Shown here in pieces: positions 3,183 through 17,921 of a stretch of DNA of 18,274 bases. The number at the start of each line of letters is the position of its first letter. The stretch's first letter is position 1. The stretch is taken from the NCBI GenBank assembly GCA_046760225.1, contig JBHIDR010000017.1, forward strand, positions 1-18,274. The letters run 5' to 3'. Source of the DNA: Candidatus Aenigmatarchaeota archaeon (GTDB lineage: Archaea > Aenigmatarchaeota > Aenigmatarchaeia > Aenigmatarchaeales > JACQIB01). The notes below the pieces were generated by a model that made no database searches, was not told the origin of the DNA, and saw nothing but the letters and a program-made list of their open reading frames with translations. A program made the translations under genes and the position numbers.

Positions 3183-3261
3183 TGGTGGGCCTCGAGGGAT
3201 TCGAACCCCCGACCTGCTGGTCCGAAGCCAGCCGCTCTAATCCAAGCTGAGCTAGAGGCCC
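3183..3261 (-). tRNA. tRNA-Arg (anticodon UCG), intronless, CCA encoded
   Basis: GGGCCTC TA GCTC AGCTTGGATTA GAGC G GCTGG CT TCG GA CCAGC AGGTC GGGGG TTCGAAT CCCTC GAGGCCC A CCA folds as a full cloverleaf; TTTAAAA upstream at about 3285-3291. Confidence 0.97.
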
Positions 3262-3930: not shown

Positions 3931-5514
3931 ATGTGCGGGATTGCTGGTGTGTATACTCCCGGAAAGAGCGTTGTAGTAAAACTGGCCAAGATTATGAAGA
4001 AAGAATGGACCAGGGGACACACTTCTTTCGGTATAGAGACCTATGATGAGAAGGGAAACCTCTACATAAGAAAAGGGATGAGAACGCCGGGTGATGAAGA
4101 CCTCGAAGGCCTGAAGGGGGACATAGGGATAGGACACCAGAGATATTCCACGCGTGGCTCGAACAAAAAGTATTTTCTGAAAAGGAATTCCCAGCCGATG
4201 TCATTGCACATTTTCCCGATAAAGGGCGGCGGGTTTGTGGCCGAGCGTTGCGACTATGTCTATGAGGATGAGTTGGAAGTAAAGAGCATGATGTCGATCG
4301 CTCATAATGGGGACATATTCAATACGGAAGAAAGGAGAGATTATCATTACCAATGCGACATAAAGTATTTTGCCTGGCCATTTGCAGATGAGCTTGCAAA
4401 AGATTATGATGGAACAATATCCAAGGAAAAGCTTACCAAGGTTGCCCGGAAAGTTATCCCGCAACTCAAGGGAAGTTTTTCTTTTGTTGGTTACACGGTC
4501 GATAGGAATCGCAACAAGACCATGTTCGCAGGAAGGGACCCGTGGGGGATAAAACCGGGCTTCATAGGAGAGGTTGACGGGGGATACGCGGTGGCCTCGG
4601 AGGACGCCGCGCTCAAGACCATAGGCTGTAAGAGGGAGGATATATTCGAAATGAAGCAGGGGCATTTCTACATCATTGATATGGATCATGACACTGAAAG
4701 GGTGGAAGTCGAGGATGTAGAAATAAAGGTAGAGAAACCTGCTTTTTGCGCCTTTGAATTCGTATACTTCGCGGACAGGAACACCACTTTTCGCGGGAGG
4801 AACGTGGCAAGAATAAGGAATGAGATGGGAAGAAGGCTCGGAAAGGAACATCCTCTCAATGTCCATATGGTCGTCCCTATTCCGGAATCCGGGAGGTCCG
4901 TGGCCATCGGTTATTCCCATGCAACAGGCGTACTTTACGAAGAAGGTTATAGCAAGAACAGAGGAATAAGCGATATACGTACTTTCATATTGCAGGAACA
5001 GGAGGCGCGTGATGAAGAGGTGCTGAATAAATTGGATCCCATCAGGGAGGTTCTTGAAGGAATGGACGTCGCGGTGGCGGATGACAGCCTGGTGCGCGGG
5101 ACCACCATGAGAAAACTAGTCAAAAGGACGCGAGATGAAGGCGGGGCAAACGAGGTCCATGTGCTCATGGGATGCCCGCCGCAGGTATCGCCCTGTTATC
5201 TTGGAATAGACATGAGGACGCGAGGAGAGTTCGCTGCAGCGCGGGCGGCAAGGAGGCTGGGTTATGATATCTACAAGGGGTTCCGTGATTTTGATAACAT
5301 GGGCCTGACAAAGGAAGAGCTCGTGAACGTGATTGAAGAGATAAAGGAGGAGATAGGCGCGGACGGTCTATACTATCTCAGCTTTGAGGGGATGAGCGAA
5401 ATAGTAGGTGATGGCTATTGCTTTGGTTGCTGGAACCCATCATTGAACCCAAAGGATTTGAGGAAGGACATAATCAGTTCTATAAGGGATAATCCAGAAG
5501 GATACAGGGTCTAA
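3931..5514 (+). CDS. purF: Amidophosphoribosyltransferase
   Basis: Ntn nucleophile MCGIAG, GHQRYSTRG, AHNGDI, RDPWGIKP, CAFEFVYFA, VPIPESG, PRPP loop DDSLVRGTT, SPCYLGIDM and CFGC (Fe-S-type cysteines). Confidence 0.97.
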   Translation: MCGIAGVYTPGKSVVVKLAKIMKKEWTRGHTSFGIETYDEKGNLYIRKGMRTPGDEDLEGLKGDIGIGHQRYSTRGSNKKYFLKRNSQPMSLHIFPIKGGGFVAERCDYVYEDELEVKSMMSIAHNGDIFNTEERRDYHYQCDIKYFAWPFADELAKDYDGTISKEKLTKVARKVIPQLKGSFSFVGYTVDRNRNKTMFAGRDPWGIKPGFIGEVDGGYAVASEDAALKTIGCKREDIFEMKQGHFYIIDMDHDTERVEVEDVEIKVEKPAFCAFEFVYFADRNTTFRGRNVARIRNEMGRRLGKEHPLNVHMVVPIPESGRSVAIGYSHATGVLYEEGYSKNRGISDIRTFILQEQEARDEEVLNKLDPIREVLEGMDVAVADDSLVRGTTMRKLVKRTRDEGGANEVHVLMGCPPQVSPCYLGIDMRTRGEFAAARAARRLGYDIYKGFRDFDNMGLTKEELVNVIEEIKEEIGADGLYYLSFEGMSEIVGDGYCFGCWNPSLNPKDLRKDIISSIRDNPEGYRV

Positions 5515-6770
5515 GGTGTGACCCTGTCCAGGGTTCTTGGGAACGCTATTGTGTCAAAGATATGGGGCGCTCCTGTGAGCCACATCACTAACCTCTCTAT
5601 TCCAAGACCGAACCCGCTGTGCGGAACTGTTCCATAGCGGCGGAGGTCAATATACCATTCATAATCCTTCTTGGGCAGCTTGAAGAGCTTGAGGGATTCT
5701 AGCAGTTTCTCCTTGTCATAAATCCTCTCTGAGCCGCCGATTATTTCACCAACCCTTGGCACGAGCAGGTCTGCGCCAAGAACAACCTTGGGATCCTTGG
5801 GATCAGGCTCCATATAGAAAGCCTTCATCTCACGCGGGAACCTCTCAAGAAACACAGGAGCCTTTGCACCTATTTTTTCCATTAGCTCCCTCTCCTCTTT
5901 GTCAGTGAGGTCATGCCCCCATTTGAGCCCGAGCTTTTTTATGGCATCTGCATACATTATCCTCTTGAAAGGCGCTGTGAGCTGTTCGAGGTCAGTTGTG
6001 TCTCTGCCAAGCTCTTTCAGCTCCTTCTTGCAGTGCTTCAGTACATGCTTTACAATGTGCAGTATCATGTCTTCCTGGAACTTGATTATCTCCTCATAAC
6101 CTACCCAGGCAAGCTCGACCTCAGCAGTCCAGTACTCAGACAGATGCCTAACTGTCCTGCTCTTCTCAGCCCTGAATGCCGGAGTAATCGTGTATATGCG
6201 CTCAAGTGCCTGTATCATGGCCTCAGCATAGAGCTGCCAGCTCAGGGAGAGGTAAACACCCTTCTTGTCACCATACTTCTTGACTTCAAAGAGCTCTGCG
6301 CCTGTTTCACAGGCAGATTTTGTGAATATTGGTGATTGCACCTCATGGCATCTGCGCGACCTGCAAAAATCATGAATTGCCCTGAAGACCTCGCTGCGCA
6401 CCTTCATGATCTCAGTGAGCTTTCTGCTGCGAATCCAGAGATGCCGCACATCGCGCAGGAATTCCTCAGAGAGGTCCCTTCCTATTGGAAATCTTTCAGC
6501 AAGGCCTATTATTCCAAGCTCCTTTGCCTGTATTTCATAGCCGCCTGGTGCGCGCTTGTCCTCCTTTACACTGCCCCTGACAGTCACAGATGATTCTATT
6601 GTTGCTTTCTCAGCCTCAGGAATCCCCTTGCATGCTAGCTGTATTATTCCAGAGCTGTCCCTGAGTATAATGAACACTATCTCCTTCTGCTCCCTCTTCC
6701 TGTATACCCATCCGCGCAAGGACACTTCTTTGCCCCTGTACTTCGGGACATCGCTTATTGGCACGAACAT
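5511..6770 (-). CDS. asnS: Asparagine--tRNA ligase
   Basis: OB fold (LRGWVYRKR, FIILRDSSG), QLYAE, FRAEKSRTVRHLSEYW, GEIIGGSER, YEWYIDLRRYGTVPHSGFGLGIER. ATG at 6770 preferred over TTG at 6779 (GGGGTTGA SD-like motif upstream). Confidence 0.93.
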   Translation of the reverse strand: MFVPISDVPKYRGKEVSLRGWVYRKREQKEIVFIILRDSSGIIQLACKGIPEAEKATIESSVTVRGSVKEDKRAPGGYEIQAKELGIIGLAERFPIGRDLSEEFLRDVRHLWIRSRKLTEIMKVRSEVFRAIHDFCRSRRCHEVQSPIFTKSACETGAELFEVKKYGDKKGVYLSLSWQLYAEAMIQALERIYTITPAFRAEKSRTVRHLSEYWTAEVELAWVGYEEIIKFQEDMILHIVKHVLKHCKKELKELGRDTTDLEQLTAPFKRIMYADAIKKLGLKWGHDLTDKEERELMEKIGAKAPVFLERFPREMKAFYMEPDPKDPKVVLGADLLVPRVGEIIGGSERIYDKEKLLESLKLFKLPKKDYEWYIDLRRYGTVPHSGFGLGIERLVMWLTGAPHIFDTIAFPRTLDRVTP

Positions 6771-6810
6771 CTTAATCAACCCCTATTTGTCTTTTCTCTG
6801 TTTTAAATGT

Positions 6811-6885
6811 TGGCGCCCGGAGCTGGACTCGAACCAGCACCCTCTTGGTTAACAGCCAAGCGCTCTTCCATTGAGCTATCCGGGC
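6811..6885 (-). tRNA. tRNA-Asn (anticodon GUU), intronless, CCA encoded
   Basis: GCCCGGA TA GCTC AATGGAA GAGC G CTTGG CT GTT AA CCAAG AGGGT GCTGG TTCGAGT CCAGC TCCGGGC G CCA, a 75-nt cloverleaf. Confidence 0.97.
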
Positions 6886-6893
6886 TTTGCCAA

Positions 6894-7853
6894 TCATACA
6901 CTCACCTCTCCTGGAAGCTTTGGAAACGGTGCTGCCTGTTCCACTCTTTCAAGTCCGCAGACAAATCTGGTAAGCCTTTCCAGGCCGAAACCAAAACCTG
7001 CTGTTGGCTTGATCCTGCTTTTTTTCAGCAAGTCCAGATACCAACTGTATATTCTGGGCTTTTCACCAACCTGCTTCAGCTTCTTTGTTATTAGTTCTGG
7101 TATGTCTTCCCTCTGACTTCCAGACACTGCCTCGCCAAAACCCTTTGGATATATCATGTCAAAGGCGAGGAGCTTTTCCCTTTGTTTTGGGTATATTTTG
7201 TCGTAAAATCCTCGTGAGCCAGTTGGGTAGTCCACTATGAAGAACGGTTCATCAAACTGCATTGATATTGCTTTTTCAGCTTCCCATGGAATCTCCTTTC
7301 CTTCTTCTATGGAAAAGCCAAGCTTTTCTGCTAGTTTTAATGCTTCTTTGTATGGCAGCCTCTTGAAAGGAAGTTTCGGGACCTTTAGCTCCTTTCCCAG
7401 CTTTTTCTTGACAACAGGCATGATTTCTCTCATTATGTCCCTTAAAATAGTTTCTGCTACTTCCATGGCCCTGTCCCTGCTGGCCCCGCTCAACTCAACA
7501 TCTATTTGCCAGAACTCACACAAGTGGCGTCCTGTTTTTCTTGCTGATAAAGGCTCCTTTCTGAGGCACGGAGATATGGAAAATACCTTTCCAAGCGCAC
7601 TGGCAGCCAGCATCTTTTGCAGAATCATGCTGCTGGTCACTTTCCACCTTTTGCCATAAAAGTCAACCTCGAACTGCTTGGCTCCTCTCAGGCCGGGATC
7701 AGTTGCAGATGCTATTATGGGCGGCCTTATCTCGAGAAAGCCCTGTCTTTCCAGGCTTGATTTGGCAGCAGCTATTATGGCATCCTGTATCTCAAGGACG
7801 TCCCTCATGCCCCTCAGCCTTTCAACTGGACATGCCTGTAACTTGCGCCTCAT
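6894..7853 (-). CDS. Archaeal asparagine synthetase (AS-AR / AsnRS2, truncated AsnRS paralog)
   Basis: 319-aa class IIb aaRS catalytic core with no anticodon domain: IIASATDPG, TSSMILQK, SPCLRKE, GRHLCEFWQIDVE, GEAVSGSQRE, PTAGFGFGLERLTRFVCG; SD GGAGGTG. Confidence 0.9.
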   Translation of the reverse strand: MRRKLQACPVERLRGMRDVLEIQDAIIAAAKSSLERQGFLEIRPPIIASATDPGLRGAKQFEVDFYGKRWKVTSSMILQKMLAASALGKVFSISPCLRKEPLSARKTGRHLCEFWQIDVELSGASRDRAMEVAETILRDIMREIMPVVKKKLGKELKVPKLPFKRLPYKEALKLAEKLGFSIEEGKEIPWEAEKAISMQFDEPFFIVDYPTGSRGFYDKIYPKQREKLLAFDMIYPKGFGEAVSGSQREDIPELITKKLKQVGEKPRIYSWYLDLLKKSRIKPTAGFGFGLERLTRFVCGLERVEQAAPFPKLPGEVSV

Positions 7854-8396: not shown

Positions 8397-9155
8397 TTAT
8401 TTCTTTCCTTTATTCTTTCGTCTTTCAACTAACTCGATATAGTCCTCATCCAGGACAACTTTGAATTGAGATAAGACATCCCAACCCAGTATCATATGTG
8501 GAAGAAGGTCGATTACTAAAGTACCTCGTTTTACACTTTCAAAGCGTCTTTGATATTTTCTGATGAATTGGCATTGCTCATTGTTGAGCCCTTTAGTGTC
8601 AAAGATTTTGAGAAGGTCCATTGTGACACCTTTTTCCAAATCACTACAATAACGCCTGATATCACTCGAATAATAAAGTGACGTAGCAAACCTATCTTCA
8701 AATTCCTCTGCTAATCGAGGTAAAAATCCAATACCCCCATCAATATCAACAGCAAACTCAAATGTGTTTATATATGGAATAGAGGCGCACGCAGCTTTGC
8801 CGTTTTCTCCTTCTATCCTTACTCTCAATTCAGCGTCATAGGTACAATGGTAAAACCTTCCCCCAAGACCAGACCCATAACCTTGTAGCTTTCCTTCTTC
8901 AAGTCCCAGCGCGGTGCGAAATTCTGGGGGTAGAAGCGTGACTGCACCGCCAGTATCCATAAGTACCTTGTCGAATAAGATGTCGTAGCTATCATCCGTG
9001 AATGGTCGCTTTACTACTCTTTTATCTAGATTACTGGGGACAGATATCAGTATATCTGGCTTGCGCATGTTTCTACTTCTATGGTATAGACCAATTTTTC
9101 CGGACATGAGATAGCCGTTCCGAATCTGTAACTTGGCACCTTCTCCCTCACTCAT
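8397..9155 (-). CDS. Retropepsin-like (clan AA) aspartyl protease-like protein with a large insertion
   Basis: VLMDTGGAVTLLP catalytic motif, Gly-rich flap GYGSGLGG and terminal ILGWDVLSQFKVVLD; TTTAAAT upstream at promoter spacing. Confidence 0.75.
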   Translation of the reverse strand: MSEGEGAKLQIRNGYLMSGKIGLYHRSRNMRKPDILISVPSNLDKRVVKRPFTDDSYDILFDKVLMDTGGAVTLLPPEFRTALGLEEGKLQGYGSGLGGRFYHCTYDAELRVRIEGENGKAACASIPYINTFEFAVDIDGGIGFLPRLAEEFEDRFATSLYYSSDIRRYCSDLEKGVTMDLLKIFDTKGLNNEQCQFIRKYQRRFESVKRGTLVIDLLPHMILGWDVLSQFKVVLDEDYIELVERRKNKGKK

Positions 9156-9212
9156 AATTATTACTTAGAAGTAAAAACATTTAAAGGTAACCATAAAGGG
9201 ATAATTAAATTT

Positions 9213-9351
9213 TGGCGCCCGCGACAGGAATCTCACCTGAGTTTTGAACCTTTGGCCTGCTATTGATCATTGCCAACACCATGTGACCTCCCGGTTAACA
9301 GCTTCGCCTGGGTTTAACCCATCGGACGCTCTTCCCCTGAGCTACGCGGGC
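9213..9351 (-). tRNA. tRNA-Asn (GUU) with three introns (30/31, 50/51, 59/60)
   Basis: Removing 9322-9303 (20 nt), 9282-9252 (31 nt) and 9242-9230 (13 nt) gives the 75-nt cloverleaf GCCCGCG TA GCTC AGGGGAA GAGC G TCCGG CT GTT AA CCGGG AGGTC ACAGG TTCAAAT CCTGT CGCGGGC G CCA; each junction forms a BHB-type motif. Confidence 0.9.
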
Positions 9352-9496
9352 ATTAATAAAGAATTGATGCCATTTAATAAAAAACTTGCAAAAGAGCTTG
9401 AAATGATATTTTACGCTTTACCCGGTTAAAAGAGTTAAATATCAACATTTATATACTGGTAAGTAGTAATTTATTATAGGATAAGGTGGTTAGCTG

Positions 9497-11479
9497 ATGG
9501 TAGAAAAAGGCACTAAGAAGAATAAAGAGCACGTTTTAGAGAAAGTTTACAGGTCATTAAAAGACAAGGGCATGTCAGACAAGGAAATTGACAGCAAGAT
9601 GCACGCGGCAATGCTTCTTTCATATGTCGGTGCTACTTACAATGTTATGGACCAGAAGAGCCTGCCCACTCCGCTTTTCAGGGCAAGGTGGAAGAAGAGG
9701 GACAAGAAAGTGGAAGTGGAGATATTAAAGGGAAGGCCAAAGGTCCCGATACCTGATTCAGTTGAGATCAATGCACTTGACCTGGTGCTTGCTCACCAGA
9801 TGAGGGACATACCCCTCCTGTGGCTGGGCGAATCAGGCACAGGAAAGACCCATGTTACAGAATGCTTTTATGCCACAATAGCCAGGCCGGAAAACATATA
9901 TTCCCTGACACTTGAGTCAGGACTGACAGGAAGCAGTGTTCTTGACCCGTTTACCCGGGGCGTACAGGAGGACGGTATGTCTAAATTGAAGATTCTGAGG
10001 GAGTCTCTTGACCAGTATATCGGGATTTTCATTGATGAGCTAACAAGAGGAGATACCAATGATATCATAAAAATTGTTGATGGGCTGGTCGTGGCAGGTT
10101 CTGAAAGGGGCAGATTAGGAATACCCATACCTGAGTTAAAGCAAGGAAAGCTCGAGTACGATGGAAGAAAGAAGAAAATGCAGGTAGTGGGTGCAGCCAA
10201 CCCCCCGAACTCAAGGTACAGCAGGGCAATAGACCCTGATGATGCCATAAAGCAGAGGTTCCAGATGTATGATTTCGAGAGCATTGCGCAGAGCGCAGGC
10301 TCATCACTGTGGAGAACAGACCCTGTTGAAGGCGGCCATGAGAAATTCATTGACCTGTTCAAGAAAAGGACATCAGAATATCTTGGTATTGACAAGTCAC
10401 TCTTCGATGGAATAGAAGATGACTGGGTCAGCCTGTATGCATGGATAACCGATTCCGAGAGGACAAGCAAGGACCAGATATACAGCGCACTTGAGTTCGC
10501 TGACATGCTGGGAGCGGCTATGTCACAGGGCTACAGCGCTACAGCCCAGGAGGAGCAGGACGAGCTGGAAGCATGGAGCAACATGCTTGAGAACGAGTAC
10601 GGCATAAAGTTCGAATTCAATTTCGCTGTCAGGGAAGACAGCGATGAGGTAAAGAAGATATACGAAGTTGTAAATTCCATGAGGGAGCCCCTTGTGCCCA
10701 GGGACATTGTAAAGGTAAAGAAGATGGCTGATGCAATAAAGACAATCAGGGAGCTCAAGACGTCCTTCTCCAACAGCGATCCTTTCGAGAAATACATGGA
10801 TATCCTTAGTAAGGAGGAAAAGAGGGCAATCACAATAGCTGATGTTGCATATTCTGCTGTCCTGCTTACAACCAGCAAGCAGAAAAGGGAGGAAGGCATA
10901 GAGTACCCGGACCCCTCAGACCTGGTAAACAAGACAATCAAGCAATACCTGGAGCTCGAGGAAGCCTACAAAAAGACCTTTGGAGTCAAAGTTGGCACCT
11001 TTGATTTCAATGACCCGAACAGGGGGATAAAGAACTTCGCCCTCAGCCAGGCAGTGCATGGTGCAGTGAAAATGGGAAGAAAGGGCATAAGGAACACCAA
11101 GGACGAGGAAGTTGTGGCAGCAGGTGATTATTCCTCTGCTCTGATATACTCCTTGAAGGAACAGGTAAAGAAGCTCACAGGACTGAAGGACGACAGCAAG
11201 CCAATGAGAAACATCATGCTCGCAAACATAATAGGAGACCTGACAACCCTGGCAGGTTTTGTGGGGATATATTACAAGGATGATGTCAACAAGGCAATAG
11301 CAAGCAAGGCAGACGGCTACTTTGACGCGAAAAAGAAGGACCCCAAGTACGGCGCAACCCACAAGAACGTCCTGCCAATAGAGGACGCCATAAAGGACGT
11401 CTATGACAAGAAGCAGAAGGAGCAGGCAATCTTCTTCCCAGACTACTTCGAGCACAGGCTCCTGAGGCTGTTCAGGTGA
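9497..11479 (+). CDS. MoxR-like AAA+ ATPase with a long C-terminal extension (660 aa)
   Basis: Walker A GESGTGKT, Walker B IFIDELTR, sensor-1 VVGAANP, arginine finger DAIKQRF; SD AGGTGG; near a vWA gene as usual for MoxR. Confidence 0.85.
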   Translation: MVEKGTKKNKEHVLEKVYRSLKDKGMSDKEIDSKMHAAMLLSYVGATYNVMDQKSLPTPLFRARWKKRDKKVEVEILKGRPKVPIPDSVEINALDLVLAHQMRDIPLLWLGESGTGKTHVTECFYATIARPENIYSLTLESGLTGSSVLDPFTRGVQEDGMSKLKILRESLDQYIGIFIDELTRGDTNDIIKIVDGLVVAGSERGRLGIPIPELKQGKLEYDGRKKKMQVVGAANPPNSRYSRAIDPDDAIKQRFQMYDFESIAQSAGSSLWRTDPVEGGHEKFIDLFKKRTSEYLGIDKSLFDGIEDDWVSLYAWITDSERTSKDQIYSALEFADMLGAAMSQGYSATAQEEQDELEAWSNMLENEYGIKFEFNFAVREDSDEVKKIYEVVNSMREPLVPRDIVKVKKMADAIKTIRELKTSFSNSDPFEKYMDILSKEEKRAITIADVAYSAVLLTTSKQKREEGIEYPDPSDLVNKTIKQYLELEEAYKKTFGVKVGTFDFNDPNRGIKNFALSQAVHGAVKMGRKGIRNTKDEEVVAAGDYSSALIYSLKEQVKKLTGLKDDSKPMRNIMLANIIGDLTTLAGFVGIYYKDDVNKAIASKADGYFDAKKKDPKYGATHKNVLPIEDAIKDVYDKKQKEQAIFFPDYFEHRLLRLFR

Positions 11480-11493
11480 GAAGGTGCATGATG

Positions 11494-11865
11494 ATGAACT
11501 ATAACAAAACAATAAAAACAAACATTGAAGACCTCACACCGGATGAGTTTGTAATAGATGTGGATAAGAAGGAGAAAAAAGACAAAAAGCCAGTAAAGAT
11601 AAGAAAAAGGAGAAGGCTCAGAAAGGGTCATGATGAAGGAAACGTTCTCAGGCTTGTTGAGAACTTTAATTACGTTACAAATCTTAAGGACGAATATAGC
11701 GGTAGGTTTTTTGACTGGGAAGATGTAATAGAGAAAACTACACGTCATTGGGACTACAGTATTGAGGACGCAAAAGAGACAGCAAAGAGACTTGAGAGCA
11801 GGCCGTACAGCTCAATTTACGCTTTCTTTCTCACCAAGAGAAAGACAAATAAAAGTGGTGCATGA
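11494..11865 (+). CDS. Leader-tagged hypothetical protein 1 (EDLTPD-type leader)
   Basis: MNYNKTIKTNIEDLTPDEFVIDVDKKEKKDKKPVKIRKRRR...; SD AGGTG at 11482; start could be 11488, 11491 or 11494; ATGA overlap with the next gene. Confidence 0.8.
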   Translation: MNYNKTIKTNIEDLTPDEFVIDVDKKEKKDKKPVKIRKRRRLRKGHDEGNVLRLVENFNYVTNLKDEYSGRFFDWEDVIEKTTRHWDYSIEDAKETAKRLESRPYSSIYAFFLTKRKTNKSGA

Positions 11866-14105
11866 TTATGGCTAACATAGACAGAGGTATAAATGAAGCA
11901 GAAAAGATATTCAGGGGCACAATTGAAAGAGAGATGCCTCTGTTCAAGAACATCGAAGTGAACAGGAAGTGGAAGAAGCCTTTTCCAGGCATGTACTGGA
12001 TGTTCTCCATAGGCAAGAAGAAGCCAACAGACGAGAAGAACCTGATAAATGCCTGGGTTTTCAATCCCAAGGCACTTGACAAGGCCTTCAAGGATGTTGT
12101 GAACCTCTATAACAACAAGAAGCTGATGGGAACAGGCGAGATTGAAAGACTTTACAGCCTGAAGGGCCGCAAGATAGACAAGGAGCACTACAAGGAGAAC
12201 CTCATGCTCATGGTGCCCACATACCTGTTTTTCCATGAAATAAACCACAAGGACATACCTTTCGGCAGGGAGGACGAGAAGAAGATTGACAAGGCGCTCT
12301 ATGAAGCAATAAGGGAGATCTGCCCGAATGAGAGCAGGGCAACAACTGTTCTGAAGGTCTCTGGTTGCAGGAACATGGTCTGGGATTTTGGTGATGATAC
12401 TGCCTTTTTCAAGGAATGGAAATATGACAGCCTGGGAGATACACTGAGGGACGAGATCAAGAACTATGGTGTTGCGCTTGACGGAACCAAGGTTGACGAC
12501 CTTCCTGACGGCACAATACCAGTATGGGATGTTATTGAACTTCATAGGTCTGACCAGCCCCTTAGCAAGACAAGGGGTGATGCTACTGCATCATGGGCCA
12601 TGAGCAGGATCATGTACAGCATGCTGTTCGCAGACACAGACACACTGAGGGGCAATCTTTTCAAGATGTTCTATGATGCCATGCTCAAGTCACCTGAGGC
12701 AAGGAGAAAGGGTATACGCAAGGACGGTGTCAGGAAAAGGGTAAAGGACGCCTTCAAGAACATGGCAAGAATACAGAAGAAGGACGTTATTGATGTTCTG
12801 AATGTTGATGGTTCTGAATTTGATGTGAAGAAATACTGCGCTGCAGTTGACGACATGTATGACAACATGATGGACAAGGCATATGTCAAGGACAGGGACT
12901 ATGTCCTCAAGTGCATAACAACCCTGATATCAGACGACAAGAGCAGGTACGAGTCCCTCAAGGGATTCATAAAGCCCTTTGCAGACATCCTCTCAGCCCA
13001 GATGTCAAGTGCAAGGGGAGAAGGAGAAATAGGTTCTGGATCTGTTTCCTCAGCACTCGAGAACCTGCTCGAAGAACTGGACCAAGGCGAAGCAGAGCAG
13101 CTGCTTCAGGACGTGATGAACGAGATGGGCGATGAAAATCCATATCAGCCTGGTACTGGTAGAGGCAGGGGAAGAGGCGGCGACAGCCCAAGACATGGCC
13201 TTGACATGATAGCAATGGACGAGTACTACAAGAAGAACCGCTACAAGATTGATGTAAAGAACCCCTCTTACAAGGACGAGGTCGTTGATGCAGGTGTGGA
13301 ACAGGAATGGGTGCTAAAAAGATCTTCAAAGATTACAGATGAGCAGAGATTAAGGTATATGAATAAAATAGAGAGGCACCAGAGGACTGTTGGTCCCAAG
13401 CACCCTGTCTTGATTGAGCGAGGAAAGGGCATATGGACCCTTAATGAATACGAAGTCAAGGAAACACAGCTCATCACAACCAGGACAGTCTCAACAGGAA
13501 TAGAGGTGCCTAAAAACATTATATTCATCCCTGACTGCTCAGGAAGCATGTTCACAGGAATCGGCTGGGGTCATGGTTCAGGAAATTATGCTGGCTCAGG
13601 CTTGCCATATGACGAGCTGAACAAAGTTATCTATGGTGTGACCGAGGCACTTGTTAATGCAGCCAGCAAAATGAAACAGAAGGTGCATGGAGCTGCTGCT
13701 CCGTTCTCCAATAGCACAAGATGGAGCGGTTTCCATGACCTTGCAGAATCATACAAGACAGCTGACAACCCGTTCAAGCAAATGCTCCACACACCTGAGG
13801 AAGGCGGGACATACCTTGATGCAACTGTCTTTGACAGGGCAGAGAAGGAGAAGGAAAAGGGCAAGACAGCTTACATAATCATAACTGACGGTCAGCTTGA
13901 TGGAGGCGATTCAGTGCTCCAGAAGATGAAGCAGTATTCCAAGAACAAGGACAATGCATTCATTTATATTGAAATCGGCGGAAGCTCAGATTTCGGAGGA
14001 GAAGTAAAGAAATTCGCAAAAAGGCACAACAATGTCAGCCATTACATCGAGAACATCAGCACGCTCGGAAAGAGGCTCGAGAGCATACTGATAAAATATG
14101 GGTGA
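11862..14105 (+). CDS. HEXXH metallopeptidase-like + C-terminal vWA (MIDAS) domain protein (747 aa)
   Basis: FFHEINH then RNMVWD in the N-terminal part; Gly/acidic linker (GTGRGRGRGG); MIDAS IFIPDCSGSM...EGGT...IIITDG. Confidence 0.85.
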   Translation: MIMANIDRGINEAEKIFRGTIEREMPLFKNIEVNRKWKKPFPGMYWMFSIGKKKPTDEKNLINAWVFNPKALDKAFKDVVNLYNNKKLMGTGEIERLYSLKGRKIDKEHYKENLMLMVPTYLFFHEINHKDIPFGREDEKKIDKALYEAIREICPNESRATTVLKVSGCRNMVWDFGDDTAFFKEWKYDSLGDTLRDEIKNYGVALDGTKVDDLPDGTIPVWDVIELHRSDQPLSKTRGDATASWAMSRIMYSMLFADTDTLRGNLFKMFYDAMLKSPEARRKGIRKDGVRKRVKDAFKNMARIQKKDVIDVLNVDGSEFDVKKYCAAVDDMYDNMMDKAYVKDRDYVLKCITTLISDDKSRYESLKGFIKPFADILSAQMSSARGEGEIGSGSVSSALENLLEELDQGEAEQLLQDVMNEMGDENPYQPGTGRGRGRGGDSPRHGLDMIAMDEYYKKNRYKIDVKNPSYKDEVVDAGVEQEWVLKRSSKITDEQRLRYMNKIERHQRTVGPKHPVLIERGKGIWTLNEYEVKETQLITTRTVSTGIEVPKNIIFIPDCSGSMFTGIGWGHGSGNYAGSGLPYDELNKVIYGVTEALVNAASKMKQKVHGAAAPFSNSTRWSGFHDLAESYKTADNPFKQMLHTPEEGGTYLDATVFDRAEKEKEKGKTAYIIITDGQLDGGDSVLQKMKQYSKNKDNAFIYIEIGGSSDFGGEVKKFAKRHNNVSHYIENISTLGKRLESILIKYG

Positions 14106-14109
14106 TTGA

Positions 14110-14973
14110 ATGAGAGAAAGAACAGTAAGAAAACCTATACCAGACGCAACCGACATGAAAGAAGTAGAGGAGAGTATAAGGAAGCAATCTAAGAAAAGAA
14201 AAGTAAAGAAACTAAAGAGGAAACCTCAGCCAATACCTTCTAACTTGGTCCCAAGGAATGAGAAGTATTATAAAGCATGGGTAGATTACTTCAGGCACTT
14301 CAATGCACGTGACCCTGAAATCATGGCTGCCTTAATTGACTTTATTAAATTTTCATGTAGAGGCATAGATATAGGTGCAGTGAATAAAGATACTTTCATC
14401 CAAACCCTTAAAATTGTAGGAAAAGAGGACGAGGCAATTGTTTATGAAAGCTTGAGAACTATTCCAAGCGAATTCAACCTTACTGATGTTGCTCTTACCC
14501 AAATGGGCATCATAGCTTCAGAATTTAGAAAAAAGAATGTAACAGATGTTAATGAAGAACTTTTTCATTATACAAGTGATAACCTCAAATTTTACATAAC
14601 TCCATATATACTTGCAAAATGGATGACTGAAGGGACAGCAGGAGTATATCTGGCTTTGCTGGATTCTCTTGATGAAGATTATCACTTGGAATTTGAATGG
14701 AAAAGGAGAAGCGATCCAGAGTATGATTACAAAGAATATAATAAATTCAAGAAAATCAGCTCCAAATTAAGAAATCCAAAGACCCTTGCGCCGTTTGTAA
14801 AGGAGGGCAAGGATGTTACAGCTTTCTTGAATGAGTACACAATTATGTTTAAGGAAATAAGCAGAATGAAGAAATCCAACCATGATTGCGGTCATGAGCC
14901 TCATAATCCTCGGGGGACGTCGTATTGTAGAGCTTGTAAGATGCTAGACAACTTTTACAAGGAGAAGAAGTGA
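14110..14973 (+). CDS. Leader-tagged hypothetical protein 2 (PIPD-type leader; C-terminal Cys/His cluster)
   Basis: MRERTVRKPIPDATDMKEVEESIRKQSKKRKVKK...; ends HDCGHEPHNPRGTSYCRACK; 4 nt after the vWA stop. Confidence 0.85.
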   Translation: MRERTVRKPIPDATDMKEVEESIRKQSKKRKVKKLKRKPQPIPSNLVPRNEKYYKAWVDYFRHFNARDPEIMAALIDFIKFSCRGIDIGAVNKDTFIQTLKIVGKEDEAIVYESLRTIPSEFNLTDVALTQMGIIASEFRKKNVTDVNEELFHYTSDNLKFYITPYILAKWMTEGTAGVYLALLDSLDEDYHLEFEWKRRSDPEYDYKEYNKFKKISSKLRNPKTLAPFVKEGKDVTAFLNEYTIMFKEISRMKKSNHDCGHEPHNPRGTSYCRACKMLDNFYKEKK

Positions 14974-14977
14974 TTTT

Positions 14978-16477
14978 ATGACAAAAGAAAATACAACCTA
15001 TGGAAGAACAGTGAGGAGACCCATACCAGACTATGCAGACCCTGATGTGGAAGAAGTAGATGTAAAAGCAATTGTCGGCAAGCCAAAGCCCAAGAGCAGC
15101 TATTCTGCACCAGCACAGGGTGACCTGGGGCAATACATAAGTAACATTGAAAAGGTCCTTGATGCTCTTGAACAGACAGAGACAATGCTTGGCAGGTATC
15201 CTGAGGACTTCCCTAGAATAACAAAGGCTAAAGCAGAAGAAATACTGAAGAGGGACGAATGGAAGGGCATTATGAAGGACTACAGGGAGATTGAGCTTCT
15301 TGAGGCTTCTATTGACGAGCATGTAAGTAGGGGTGATGATTACAGAATGCTGGCAAAGGCACCGATCATTGATACCCGTATAGGCCTTGATTACAACCCA
15401 TCCACAAATGCAATAAATCTTTCAAATCTAGTGGTGCAGACAAGAACCATACCCCGAGGAATTGATACTTTCATGAGGATTTTCCTGAAACAGGCAAAGA
15501 AGAACAAAAAGGCCACTGTTTCCTTGAGGTATGGAAAAAAGACAGAGCAAAGGGAAAAGGAAGTTCCAGGAAGATTCTGGGGCACAAAGAAGGTCAAGGA
15601 ATATGTTCAAGTTGTAGACAAAGGAAAGATAGAAGGCATAGTTGTCCAGTATGATGATGCAGAGATTGATGTAAAGTTTGAGGAAAAGCATGGTGACAAG
15701 AAAGTCTCTTTCAGGGGCTCCATATCAGAGCCGAACAAGGACGAGAACATTACTCAGCTCTACAAGTGGCTTTTTAGGTTCGACAAGACAACATACGAAG
15801 ATATGGTAAAGAATATCCATGATATATATGAGAAAGGAACAAAGCTCGAGGAAAAGCTGCACAAGGACAAGAACTACAAGTCAGTGCTCAAGCTTATCAA
15901 GGACAACATACCAGAGGACAAGATACCGGATGTGATAGAGAAGAGGAACAAGATCATTGGGAACAAGGGCAGGCTGGAGGAAAATCTTGAAGGCCTTTAC
16001 ATCCCATGCGGGGATATAGTTGCCACAAACATCTCTGTTGACAATTACGGAACAATCAAGATATCAGCTAAAGGAAATTGTAAGAACATATCAGCCAACA
16101 AATACGTGGATGTTCTTGAGGCGCTCATGGAAAAATATGCAATTGAAGGTGAAATCCATACAGAAAAGGACAAGGATAGTGTTTACTACAAGATATTCAC
16201 TGAAATAAAGGATGACCAAATGAAAACGAAGAAAGGACCAGTTTATAGCTATAGTGGCTACAATTACATGGATAGTAGCGAATCAGATTACAGCAGAGAC
16301 AAAGACAATGAAATCAAATATCTCAATGTCAGGAAAGCTGAGATAAAATTCCAGACAGAGGACGTCAACAGCAAAGGGGAAATAAAGTACGAGAATGGCA
16401 AGTTCTCCTTTTTCATCAGGACAAACCCCGAGCATATCGATGATTTTAAGGATATACTGCACACACCGGTGAAATGA
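14978..16477 (+). CDS. Leader-tagged hypothetical protein 3 (PIPD-type leader, 499 aa)
   Basis: MTKENTTYGRTVRRPIPDYADPDVEEVDVKAIVGKPKPK...; long ORF 4 nt after the previous stop; body not recognised. Confidence 0.85.
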   Translation: MTKENTTYGRTVRRPIPDYADPDVEEVDVKAIVGKPKPKSSYSAPAQGDLGQYISNIEKVLDALEQTETMLGRYPEDFPRITKAKAEEILKRDEWKGIMKDYREIELLEASIDEHVSRGDDYRMLAKAPIIDTRIGLDYNPSTNAINLSNLVVQTRTIPRGIDTFMRIFLKQAKKNKKATVSLRYGKKTEQREKEVPGRFWGTKKVKEYVQVVDKGKIEGIVVQYDDAEIDVKFEEKHGDKKVSFRGSISEPNKDENITQLYKWLFRFDKTTYEDMVKNIHDIYEKGTKLEEKLHKDKNYKSVLKLIKDNIPEDKIPDVIEKRNKIIGNKGRLEENLEGLYIPCGDIVATNISVDNYGTIKISAKGNCKNISANKYVDVLEALMEKYAIEGEIHTEKDKDSVYYKIFTEIKDDQMKTKKGPVYSYSGYNYMDSSESDYSRDKDNEIKYLNVRKAEIKFQTEDVNSKGEIKYENGKFSFFIRTNPEHIDDFKDILHTPVK

Positions 16478-16478
16478 T

Positions 16479-16952
16479 ATGGGAGACAGAATACTCAAAG
16501 GAGAATTTGAAGACCTCACACCAGATACCTATGTGATAGATTTGGACGAGGAGAAGGAAGAGCCAGAAAAGAAACGTATTCCTTCATTTAAGGAATATCT
16601 GGAAGAGAATGTTACGCCTGAAAAGACACATGAAGAGATTGCTGAGGAATACCAGCAGCAGTATGGCTCAAGGGGCGATGACATCAAGACCATCTACCAG
16701 GTCCTTGAGGAGTCAAGGGCAGACAACGGCAGGAGGACTGATTACACCAACGACAAGAAGAGAATAGAGACAAACGGCAAAAAGAAGCCCAAGAAGAAGA
16801 AAGAAGAGGAAAAGTATGATGACCCGTTCGCAGACTATACTGATGATGACTTTACAGTTGAGATGGACAGGGGCTTGGAAGTCAAATCAGAAGAAAAATG
16901 GTACCAGGCTGCTTGGAGGAAATTCAAGAACCTTTTCAGCAGGGGGAAATGA
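16479..16952 (+). CDS. Leader-tagged hypothetical protein 4 (EDLTPD-type leader; highly charged; amphipathic C-terminus)
   Basis: MGDRILKGEFEDLTPDTYVIDLDEEKEEPEKKR...KWYQAAWRKFKNLFSRGK. Confidence 0.85.
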   Translation: MGDRILKGEFEDLTPDTYVIDLDEEKEEPEKKRIPSFKEYLEENVTPEKTHEEIAEEYQQQYGSRGDDIKTIYQVLEESRADNGRRTDYTNDKKRIETNGKKKPKKKKEEEKYDDPFADYTDDDFTVEMDRGLEVKSEEKWYQAAWRKFKNLFSRGK

Positions 16953-17128
16953 TTATGAACAACAATCGTAACAAAATAATAAAGAGACCAATACCAGATG
17001 CAACTGACACAAAAAAGATAGAGGAAAGTATAAAAGAGAAAAAAGGAAGAAGAGCAGAAAGAAGAAAAGAAAGAAGGGTGCATGATTATGACCACTCCAT
17101 ATGGAAAGACAATAAAAGGGCGGATTGA
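16949..17128 (+). CDS. Leader-only mini-ORF 5 (PIPD-type), possibly frameshifted
   Basis: ATG at 16949 overlaps the previous TGA; MIMNNNRNKIIKRPIPDATDTKKIEESIKEKK closely matches the 14110 leader; as read, it runs 47 nt into the next gene. Confidence 0.65.
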   Translation: MIMNNNRNKIIKRPIPDATDTKKIEESIKEKKGRRAERRKERRVHDYDHSIWKDNKRAD

Positions 17129-17921
17129 AGACCACACAGAAGAAGAAATAAAGATAGATTTTGATGAGGAAGAGAAAAAACCAGTAAAAAAGAGGAAAAA
17201 AAGAAAGCTAAAAAGAATGGACACACCACCATTTCTTCCTGAAATAATAGAGGCAGGATACGAAATAAATGAAATAATGCCTAACCGCAACATATTCTTC
17301 GGGTATCTGACACTTGAGGTCCCCAAGACAGAGAAATATTATGAAAAGGATGGTGAACCAGTTCTTTTTGATTCTAATGGTGAAGAAGAGAATTATTATG
17401 GATTTAGTGAGAAAGAGGTTAAAGAGACGAGACAAGACTTCAATTTGAAGAGAAGCGCTGAAGAGTATATAAGAAAGGTTATATCAAAGAAGCTCGAGCC
17501 CATATTAGAGATAGTCGAGAATATTTACAAAGATACAAAGCCTGTAAGGTATTTTTTTACCAAGATTGATGATATTTCATTCAACATTTATAGCTGTAGA
17601 AGGGACACCGATTACAGTTTTAGTGAATTTTCCCCTGTTAGTCATGTAACAGTACAAGGCGCTGACTTTCTGACCATTGATTTTCGTTACACACTTGAAG
17701 AGACAGAAAAAATAAAGAAAGGGACAAAAGACCATTATTTGGAGAGGAGTTTTACTGACAAGCTTCTAGGAAGAGAGCCCGAGAAAAGGGTATTGGACTA
17801 TTATCATGTCTATGACAGGCCTGAATTATACGTAAAATTTAATGCACGCTCCATTGCTAACAACAGGAAAAATGCACTAATCAAGACCCTGAAGAAAGCA
17901 GGCTTCAAGGTACATAGGTGA
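17082..17921 (+). CDS. Leader-tagged hypothetical protein 6 (279 aa)
   Basis: MIMTTPYGKTIKGRIEDHTEEEIKIDFDEEEKKPVKKRKKRKLKR...; SD GGGTG; start at 17082 or 17088. Confidence 0.85.
   Translation: MIMTTPYGKTIKGRIEDHTEEEIKIDFDEEEKKPVKKRKKRKLKRMDTPPFLPEIIEAGYEINEIMPNRNIFFGYLTLEVPKTEKYYEKDGEPVLFDSNGEEENYYGFSEKEVKETRQDFNLKRSAEEYIRKVISKKLEPILEIVENIYKDTKPVRYFFTKIDDISFNIYSCRRDTDYSFSEFSPVSHVTVQGADFLTIDFRYTLEETEKIKKGTKDHYLERSFTDKLLGREPEKRVLDYYHVYDRPELYVKFNARSIANNRKNALIKTLKKAGFKVHR

Follow-up and report, generated by a model that had tools for sequence, protein, structure and literature searches.

The locus at 9351..9213 on the minus strand (139 nt) raises the question of whether a tRNA-Asn(GUU) gene that is broken up by three introns, and whose canonical 37/38 site is empty, can be a working gene. 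It lies in a window of 18,274 nt, which is the whole stretch of DNA analysed and a whole contig of an 851 kb assembly (83 contigs, 83% complete). The genome is DPANN, Aenigmatarchaeota-like, and the genomes of its relatives measure 0.3–2 Mb. We hold with good confidence that the locus is a functional, vertically inherited tRNA-Asn(GUU) gene of this archaeon. The unspliced sequence starts with a 7-nt acceptor strand and ends with the complementary strand, the discriminator G and CCA. When the four exons (29, 20, 9, and 17 nt) are joined, ARAGORN accepts a tRNA-Asn(gtt) of 75 nt, encoded CCA counted in, with a regular cloverleaf, a 7-bp acceptor stem, the discriminator G and CCA. Together with inspection of the BHB motifs, this bears out an earlier note, which had proposed three BHB-type introns, none at 37/38, and an exact 75-nt cloverleaf after cutting behind the second bulge base.

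All parts of the gene lie on the minus strand, which the earlier note had left unnamed. Exon 1 (29 nt, 9323..9351) holds the acceptor 5′ strand, the D-arm and positions 26–30, and is followed by intron 1 at 30/31 (20 nt, 9303..9322). Exon 2 (20 nt, 9283..9302) covers positions 31–50 with the anticodon GTT at 9299..9297, and intron 2 is inserted at 50/51 (31 nt, 9252..9282). Exon 3, at 9243..9251, is a micro-exon of 9 nt, as the earlier note had it, spanning positions 51–59, which make up most of the T-loop and, on the 5′ strand of the T-stem, its 3′ part. It separates introns 2 and 3, which therefore do not abut, contrary to the earlier note. Finally, intron 3 is located at 59/60 (13 nt, 9230..9242) and exon 4 (17 nt, 9213..9229) contributes position 60, the T-stem 3′ strand, the acceptor 3′ strand, the discriminator G and the CCA at 9215..9213. 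The anticodon GUU and the discriminator G73 are identity elements of tRNA-Asn; the spliced product has both, and GTT with the terminal G is common to all 18 aligned tRNA-Asn sequences. Upstream, an AT-rich element resembling a TATA box at 9372..9384 (minus strand), read from the sequence at roughly −33 to −21 relative to the mature 5′ end, is a putative archaeal promoter, and TTTATTAA-like boxes are found about −28 to −35 upstream of the tRNA-Asn genes of three relatives (G005, G014, and G037). The locus was also found on contigs of four runs of one study, a hydrothermal vent metagenome, two of which may be the source of this DNA, with no differences inside the gene; the joined, intron-less form was absent from the contigs of all four. 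A single contig covers the entire compared stretch in three of the runs and none does in run X4. One X4 contig (record 7, 307 nt, depth 4) matches window positions 9296–9352, which run from exon 1 through intron 1 into exon 2, with five differences and three gapped bases inside intron 1, and it may represent a related strain with a 30/31 intron that is 3 nt shorter.

Each intron presents a central helix of 4 bp, with one G·U pair in every case, and two 3-nt bulges on opposite strands; the predicted cuts, behind the second base of each bulge, keep the register known from canonical 37/38 introns. Intron 1 has the central helix CGTC/GGCG, the bulges CG^A and AA^G, a strong inner helix of 5 bp (TGGGT/ACCCA) and a weak outer one of 2 bp (AG/CT), and is hBH-like. 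Intron 2 has the central helix GGTC/GGCC, the bulges AC^A and AA^A and a long inner stem pairing at eight of nine positions, without any outer helix. Intron 3 has the central helix TTCA/TGAG and the bulges AA^A and AT^T, an outer helix of 3 bp (AGG/CCT) that belongs to the T-stem and almost no inner helix (1 bp), and is HBh′-like. Every helix and bulge quoted in the earlier note is thus present in the sequence. BHB motifs of the hBHBh′, hBH and HBh′ types have at least one flanking helix, which is the inner one in introns 1 and 2 and the outer one in intron 3. The three motifs differ in how they fold. When the whole precursor is folded thermodynamically, its MFE structure includes the central helix of intron 2, with a pair probability of 0.69–0.85, while for the corresponding helices of introns 1 and 3, folded as free RNA, the minimum pair probability stays at or below 0.03 in every intermediate. 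The structure in which all three BHBs are enforced lies 7.6 kcal/mol above the MFE, and C25, a base of the D-stem, is needed for the central helix of intron 1, so that the two compete for it. The weak folding of introns 1 and 3 and the competition for C25 count against a functional gene, as does a search of RNA runs, none of which matched window positions 8400–10400.

The introns would probably be removed one at a time. Stepwise splicing is expected because cutting introns 2 and 3 together would leave the 9-nt exon 3 held by 3 bp only. Within such a scheme intron 2 would probably be spliced before intron 3, since in the folding model it has the sole BHB that is stable in the free precursor and since, with intron 2 gone, the outer helix of intron 3 grows from 3 bp to 5 bp. 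Introns that have to be removed before the next BHB can form are a situation that tRNAscan-SE 2.0 was built to handle, according to the part of its description used here (PMC8450103).

Comparison with related genomes supports selection on the exons. A DNA search of 41 genomes (this one, G000, and 40 relatives) gave matches in four, this genome included. The congener G001 has two identical tRNA-Asn copies: the first is syntenic with the three-intron gene, and the second is located directly upstream of the gene for asparagine–tRNA ligase (AsnRS), where the window has another, intronless tRNA-Asn. The mature sequence of the three-intron gene is 90% identical to the G001 tRNA-Asn (84% identity for the upstream sequence and exon 1), and two acceptor pairs have changed on both sides in a compensatory manner, 5-68 being G-C here and A-T in G001 and 6-67 being C-G here and G-C there. 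In G001 the gene is interrupted only once, by a canonical 37/38 intron of 42 nt. Hence the exons are conserved between the orthologs and the introns are not. Exon conservation and compensatory changes indicate selection on the exons for tRNA structure.

The introns, by contrast, turn over among close relatives. The tRNA-Asn could be resolved in 12 relatives, where it is intronless in seven and has one 37/38 intron in three (12, 15, and 42 nt); G014 has one 59/60 intron of 51 nt, and G005 has introns at both 39/40 and 59/60 (37 and 54 nt). Among 80 AsnRS loci, 22 were scanned for an adjoining tRNA-Asn, and the scan yielded only intronless copies (L063, L065, L066, and L087) and a gene like that of G001 (L067). 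A further case of turnover within the genus is the tRNA-Arg(tcg) at window 3183–3261 (minus strand), which is intronless, whereas the syntenic G001 gene (L008 10112–10232) has a 43-nt intron at 37/38.

The earlier note had called the gene cryptic. This is right in that standard finders overlook it; it is not, however, the sole tRNA-Asn(GUU), as a second, intronless one was detected 2.3 kb away at 6811..6885 (minus strand) by both ARAGORN and Rfam (75.5 bits). That copy lies between a gene resembling asparagine synthetase A (6894–7853, minus strand; NF005052, 352 bits, just below the 368-bit cut-off) and the AsnRS gene (5511..6779, minus strand; NCBIfam NF003037, 456 bits, cut-off 414), whose 11 closest loci show 62–74% identity. 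It begins 8 nt after the asnA-like gene, ends 31 nt before AsnRS and has no AT-rich box of its own; the arrangement looks like an operon. In G001 a tRNA-Asn of the intron-containing type occupies this position, and the syntenic block has no asnA-like gene. The neighboring ORF at 3931–5514 was first considered AsnB-like for its Pfam GATase matches, an assignment that was rejected in favor of a purF-like amidophosphoribosyltransferase, which NCBIfam suggests at a score under the cut-off. The intronless tRNA-Asn is an outlier among the 18 tRNA-Asn compared, with at most 79% identity to any other and a T-stem that is absent from the other 17, and it could be a replacement or a lateral arrival. It differs from the three-intron gene in the sequence of both the acceptor stem and the T-stem. 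The spliced product of the three-intron gene, on the other hand, is 85–90% identical to the tRNA-Asn of G001, G030, G005, and G010, which is the common sequence type of the order. With the product of the common type and the intronless copy an outlier, the three-intron gene looks like the inherited one.

The presence of an intronless twin means that the three-intron gene is in principle dispensable, which weighs against its being functional. It could be a redundant copy that is turning into a pseudogene, with intact exons and poor or no splicing, while decoding is carried out by the copy at 6885..6811. The position of that copy beside AsnRS fits this view, and so do the weak, relaxed BHBs of introns 1 and 3 with their low pair probabilities. 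We nevertheless consider such decay unlikely. The four stems have been preserved and show compensatory changes when compared with G001, the exact geometry of 4-bp helix and 3-nt bulges is kept in all three introns, the gene has a TATA-like box of its own, and it is this gene and not the twin that carries the sequence type shared by the order. In addition, multi-intron genes are predicted for isoacceptors such as Gln(ctg) and Pro(cgg), for which the genome scan found no other gene, which implies that the cell must splice precursors of this kind. A functional, inherited gene therefore remains the preferred reading.

That scan was undertaken with our own SPLITS-like code over the whole 851-kb genome. 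To qualify, a gene needed U8, an encoded CCA and an acceptor stem perfectly paired over 7 bp; it could contain at most three introns, each having a central helix of 4 bp and one flanking helix, and its joined product had to pass ARAGORN. From 737,388 candidate introns and 2,718 acceptor candidates, 2,490,606 combinations were tested, yielding 48 solutions at 26 acceptor pairs, equivalent to 25 distinct loci. The code is rough and is validated only to the extent that it re-finds the ARAGORN and Rfam genes; the other loci are predictions. Known tools recover far less than a full tRNA set here, with 11 tRNAs reported by ARAGORN without introns and 17 matches to Rfam RF00005 above cut-off. Among the 25 predicted loci, eight are intronless and 17 interrupted. 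One-intron genes are predicted eight times, only once with the intron at 37/38, and two- or three-intron genes nine times, with three introns each in Ser(tga), Gln(ctg), and Pro(cgg); one of those nine (C4 24635–24830) has no class-consistent solution. The commonest predicted site is 59/60, which is occupied in 10 of the 25 loci. Near-identical 59/60 introns are shared between C20 9209–9474 and C37 3996–4138 (35 nt) and between C30 2843–3001 and C71 1976–2187 (42–43 nt), and the 37/38 intron of the C71 gene resembles its own 59/60 intron. These similarities suggest that introns may have been copied between tRNA genes of this genome. A copied origin for the introns of the Asn gene was rejected after a blastn-short search of introns and flanks against the whole genome, in which the best non-self match reached only an E-value of 0.3. 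Likewise, a homing endonuclease was sought beside the gene and discarded as a candidate, with no such domain at E ≤ 1 in the flanking ORFs at 8397–9155 (minus strand) and 9497–11479 (plus strand).

For the unspliced sequence of the Asn gene at 9351..9213, ARAGORN reported no gene with or without its intron mode (−i), and Rfam RF00005 gave nothing at E ≤ 10, in agreement with the expectation of the earlier note that standard annotation could miss it; the only Rfam match at E ≤ 10 within 9100–9460 was to a lncRNA family on the opposite strand, and was dismissed as spurious. The scan offered four solutions at the locus. Three of them (86, 88, and 88 nt, all accepted by ARAGORN) would correspond to a different splicing pattern, with only two introns or with other cut sites, and a product with a long extra arm. 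We find this highly improbable, since tRNA-Asn belongs to class I, whose members have no long variable arm, and all 17 others compared have 75–77 nt with CCA; the conserved T-loop and the 5-nt variable region are restored by the three-intron solution alone, the sole one of 75 nt (class I). Chance resemblance without any gene, for which only the silence of the standard finders at the locus speaks, has a negligible probability and is refuted by the recovery of the same solution in the scan, by the reversed-sequence control (0 loci in 416,250 bases, against 25 in the real genome) and by the syntenic G001 ortholog with its compensatory pairs and 90% identical product.

A functional three-intron gene calls for enzymes able to process it. 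Typing of the EndA of the genome, which the earlier note had put forward as a check, revealed two separate genes, alpha-like and beta-like, a layout linked to cleavage of relaxed BHBs. PF01974 has two matches above cut-off in the genome; the two EndA genes are located on contig C2 and encode proteins of 163 and 176 aa, each with EndA N- and C-terminal domains. The alpha-like protein (176 aa, G000:C2:23825–24352, equal to L007 2332–2862, plus strand) keeps the catalytic Tyr and His, and its best match among solved structures is PDB 3iey chain A (E-value = 4e-35), which we take to be the (alpha-beta)2 EndA of Nanoarchaeum equitans. The beta-like protein (163 aa, G000:C2:22793–23242) has neither the catalytic His nor the Lys, as expected of a structural beta subunit. 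An EndA match was obtained in each of the 21 genomes searched in the order, and at least two in 18 of these, adjacent wherever both are listed. Separate alpha and beta subunits are an arrangement that has been associated with cleavage of relaxed, non-canonical introns in the parts of the literature consulted (PMC5829648, PMC4090602). In this genome the beta-like and alpha-like genes are separated by a 189-aa ORF (L007 1785–2354, plus strand, on G000:C2) that overlaps with the longest frame of the alpha-like gene; most relatives have the two EndA genes side by side.

The alpha-like subunit departs from the known enzymes in its active site. In alignments to 3iey, 1a79, and 5x89, Ala replaces the triad lysine (Lys156 in M. 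jannaschii), within R-A-N and not the R-K-K motif with which 3iey chain A keeps its catalytic Lys. The same Ala occurs in all 20 alpha sequences of the order, which leaves the Tyr-His-Lys triad without its lysine, and in another 20, drawn mostly from other orders of the class, the residue is Ala, Ser or Thr, followed by Arg or Lys in 15 of the 20. The equivalent K334A mutation abolishes cleavage by the M. kandleri EndA, as stated in the text of PMC5829648 available here, and the substitution counts against the preferred reading. A conserved insertion rich in Lys and Arg (K-P-L-K-R-G-P-K type) is located between the catalytic Tyr and His; 3iey has a comparable insertion of 6–7 residues relative to the M. 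jannaschii EndA. In the same part of PMC5829648, a “specific loop” of EndA (L1/L2/L3) with a conserved Lys is described as conferring cleavage of relaxed BHBs. It is our guess that the insertion might supply the missing charge.

RtcB is also encoded (PF01139, 496.8 bits). Its match at G000:C35:1477–2834 (plus strand) falls into two pieces, the first covering profile positions 3–52 with two TAG stops and the second 47–426 in an open frame of 386 aa; a frameshift, an assembly error or an inserted element are possible reasons. With these enzymes, expression of the gene could proceed as follows. Transcription from its own AT-rich promoter would give a precursor of roughly 139 nt, whose three BHBs would be cut by the two-subunit (alpha and beta) EndA after the second base of each 3-nt bulge, at six sites in all. 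RtcB would then ligate the four exons into the 75-nt cloverleaf with G73 and encoded CCA, and the neighboring AsnRS would charge this product, acting on both tRNA-Asn.

Multi-intron tRNA genes are a kind already known, and it is the layout found here that is unusual. In the Thermoproteales, up to three BHB introns per tRNA gene, mostly at non-canonical positions, are reported in the portions of the literature drawn on here (PMC4033280, PMC8450103; Sugahara et al., 2008 and Fujishima et al., 2010 are reviewed there). The present gene shares with them the relaxed hBH and HBh′ motifs, the close spacing of introns, such that order may matter, and the two-subunit EndA; unlike them, its host belongs to a DPANN lineage with a genome below 1 Mb and is no crenarchaeon. 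“Intron transposition”, which is ascribed to the Thermoproteales in the same sources, has left no sign in the Asn gene, as its three introns have no paralog in the genome, although similar introns do recur among other tRNA genes there, a pattern that resembles the spread reported for the Thermoproteales. Closer parallels come from ARMAN-2, for which the consulted part of PMC3239211 describes a tRNA-Cys with a 13-nt intron at 59/60 that is cleaved in vitro and one gene with introns at 53/54 and 59/60. ARMAN-2 is likewise DPANN, and the 59/60 site and 13-nt length of intron 3 and a micro-exon between two T-arm introns are common to both. The differences are that the ARMAN-2 EndA is a fused three-unit epsilon2 form, compared to two separate genes of about 165–175 aa here, and that at most two introns per gene are described in that part of the report, compared to three here. 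Incomplete tRNA sets in DPANN have been taken as a sign of undetected disrupted genes that need a manual search, in the section of PMC5829648 drawn on here. Our literature search found no description of tRNA introns of Aenigmatarchaeota.

Three points add interest to this locus, namely an intron content that has turned over fully within the genus, a divergent tRNA-Asn without introns next to AsnRS and an EndA that lacks the triad lysine. A tentative and rather doubtful extension would connect the first and the last: BHB introns may be gained and lost fast in Aenigmatarchaeota, given that the same gene has one 37/38 intron or three non-canonical ones within a genus, and may be served by a lysine-less alpha-beta EndA in which the Lys/Arg-rich loop between Tyr and His provides a substitute, a functionally distinct, relaxed active site that would permit introns to proliferate, including the predicted 59/60 introns in 10 of 25 loci. 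Congeners with entirely different introns in one orthologous gene, along with the 59/60 hot spot, offer a natural system for the study of BHB intron gain and loss. Similarly, an intron-rich lineage whose sole catalytic EndA subunit lacks the triad lysine is a test case for catalysis and relaxed specificity. As finders miss the gene and 17 of the 25 loci are predicted to be interrupted, tRNA counts, inferences from codon usage and completeness estimates come out too low for DPANN genomes of this type. Concerning the rest of the window, six co-directional ORFs of 157–747 aa occupy 9497–17921 (plus strand) and match no Pfam family at E ≤ 0.001; the first of them (660 aa) shows weak AAA_5 and GmrSD_N-like matches (E-values of 0.002–0.04).
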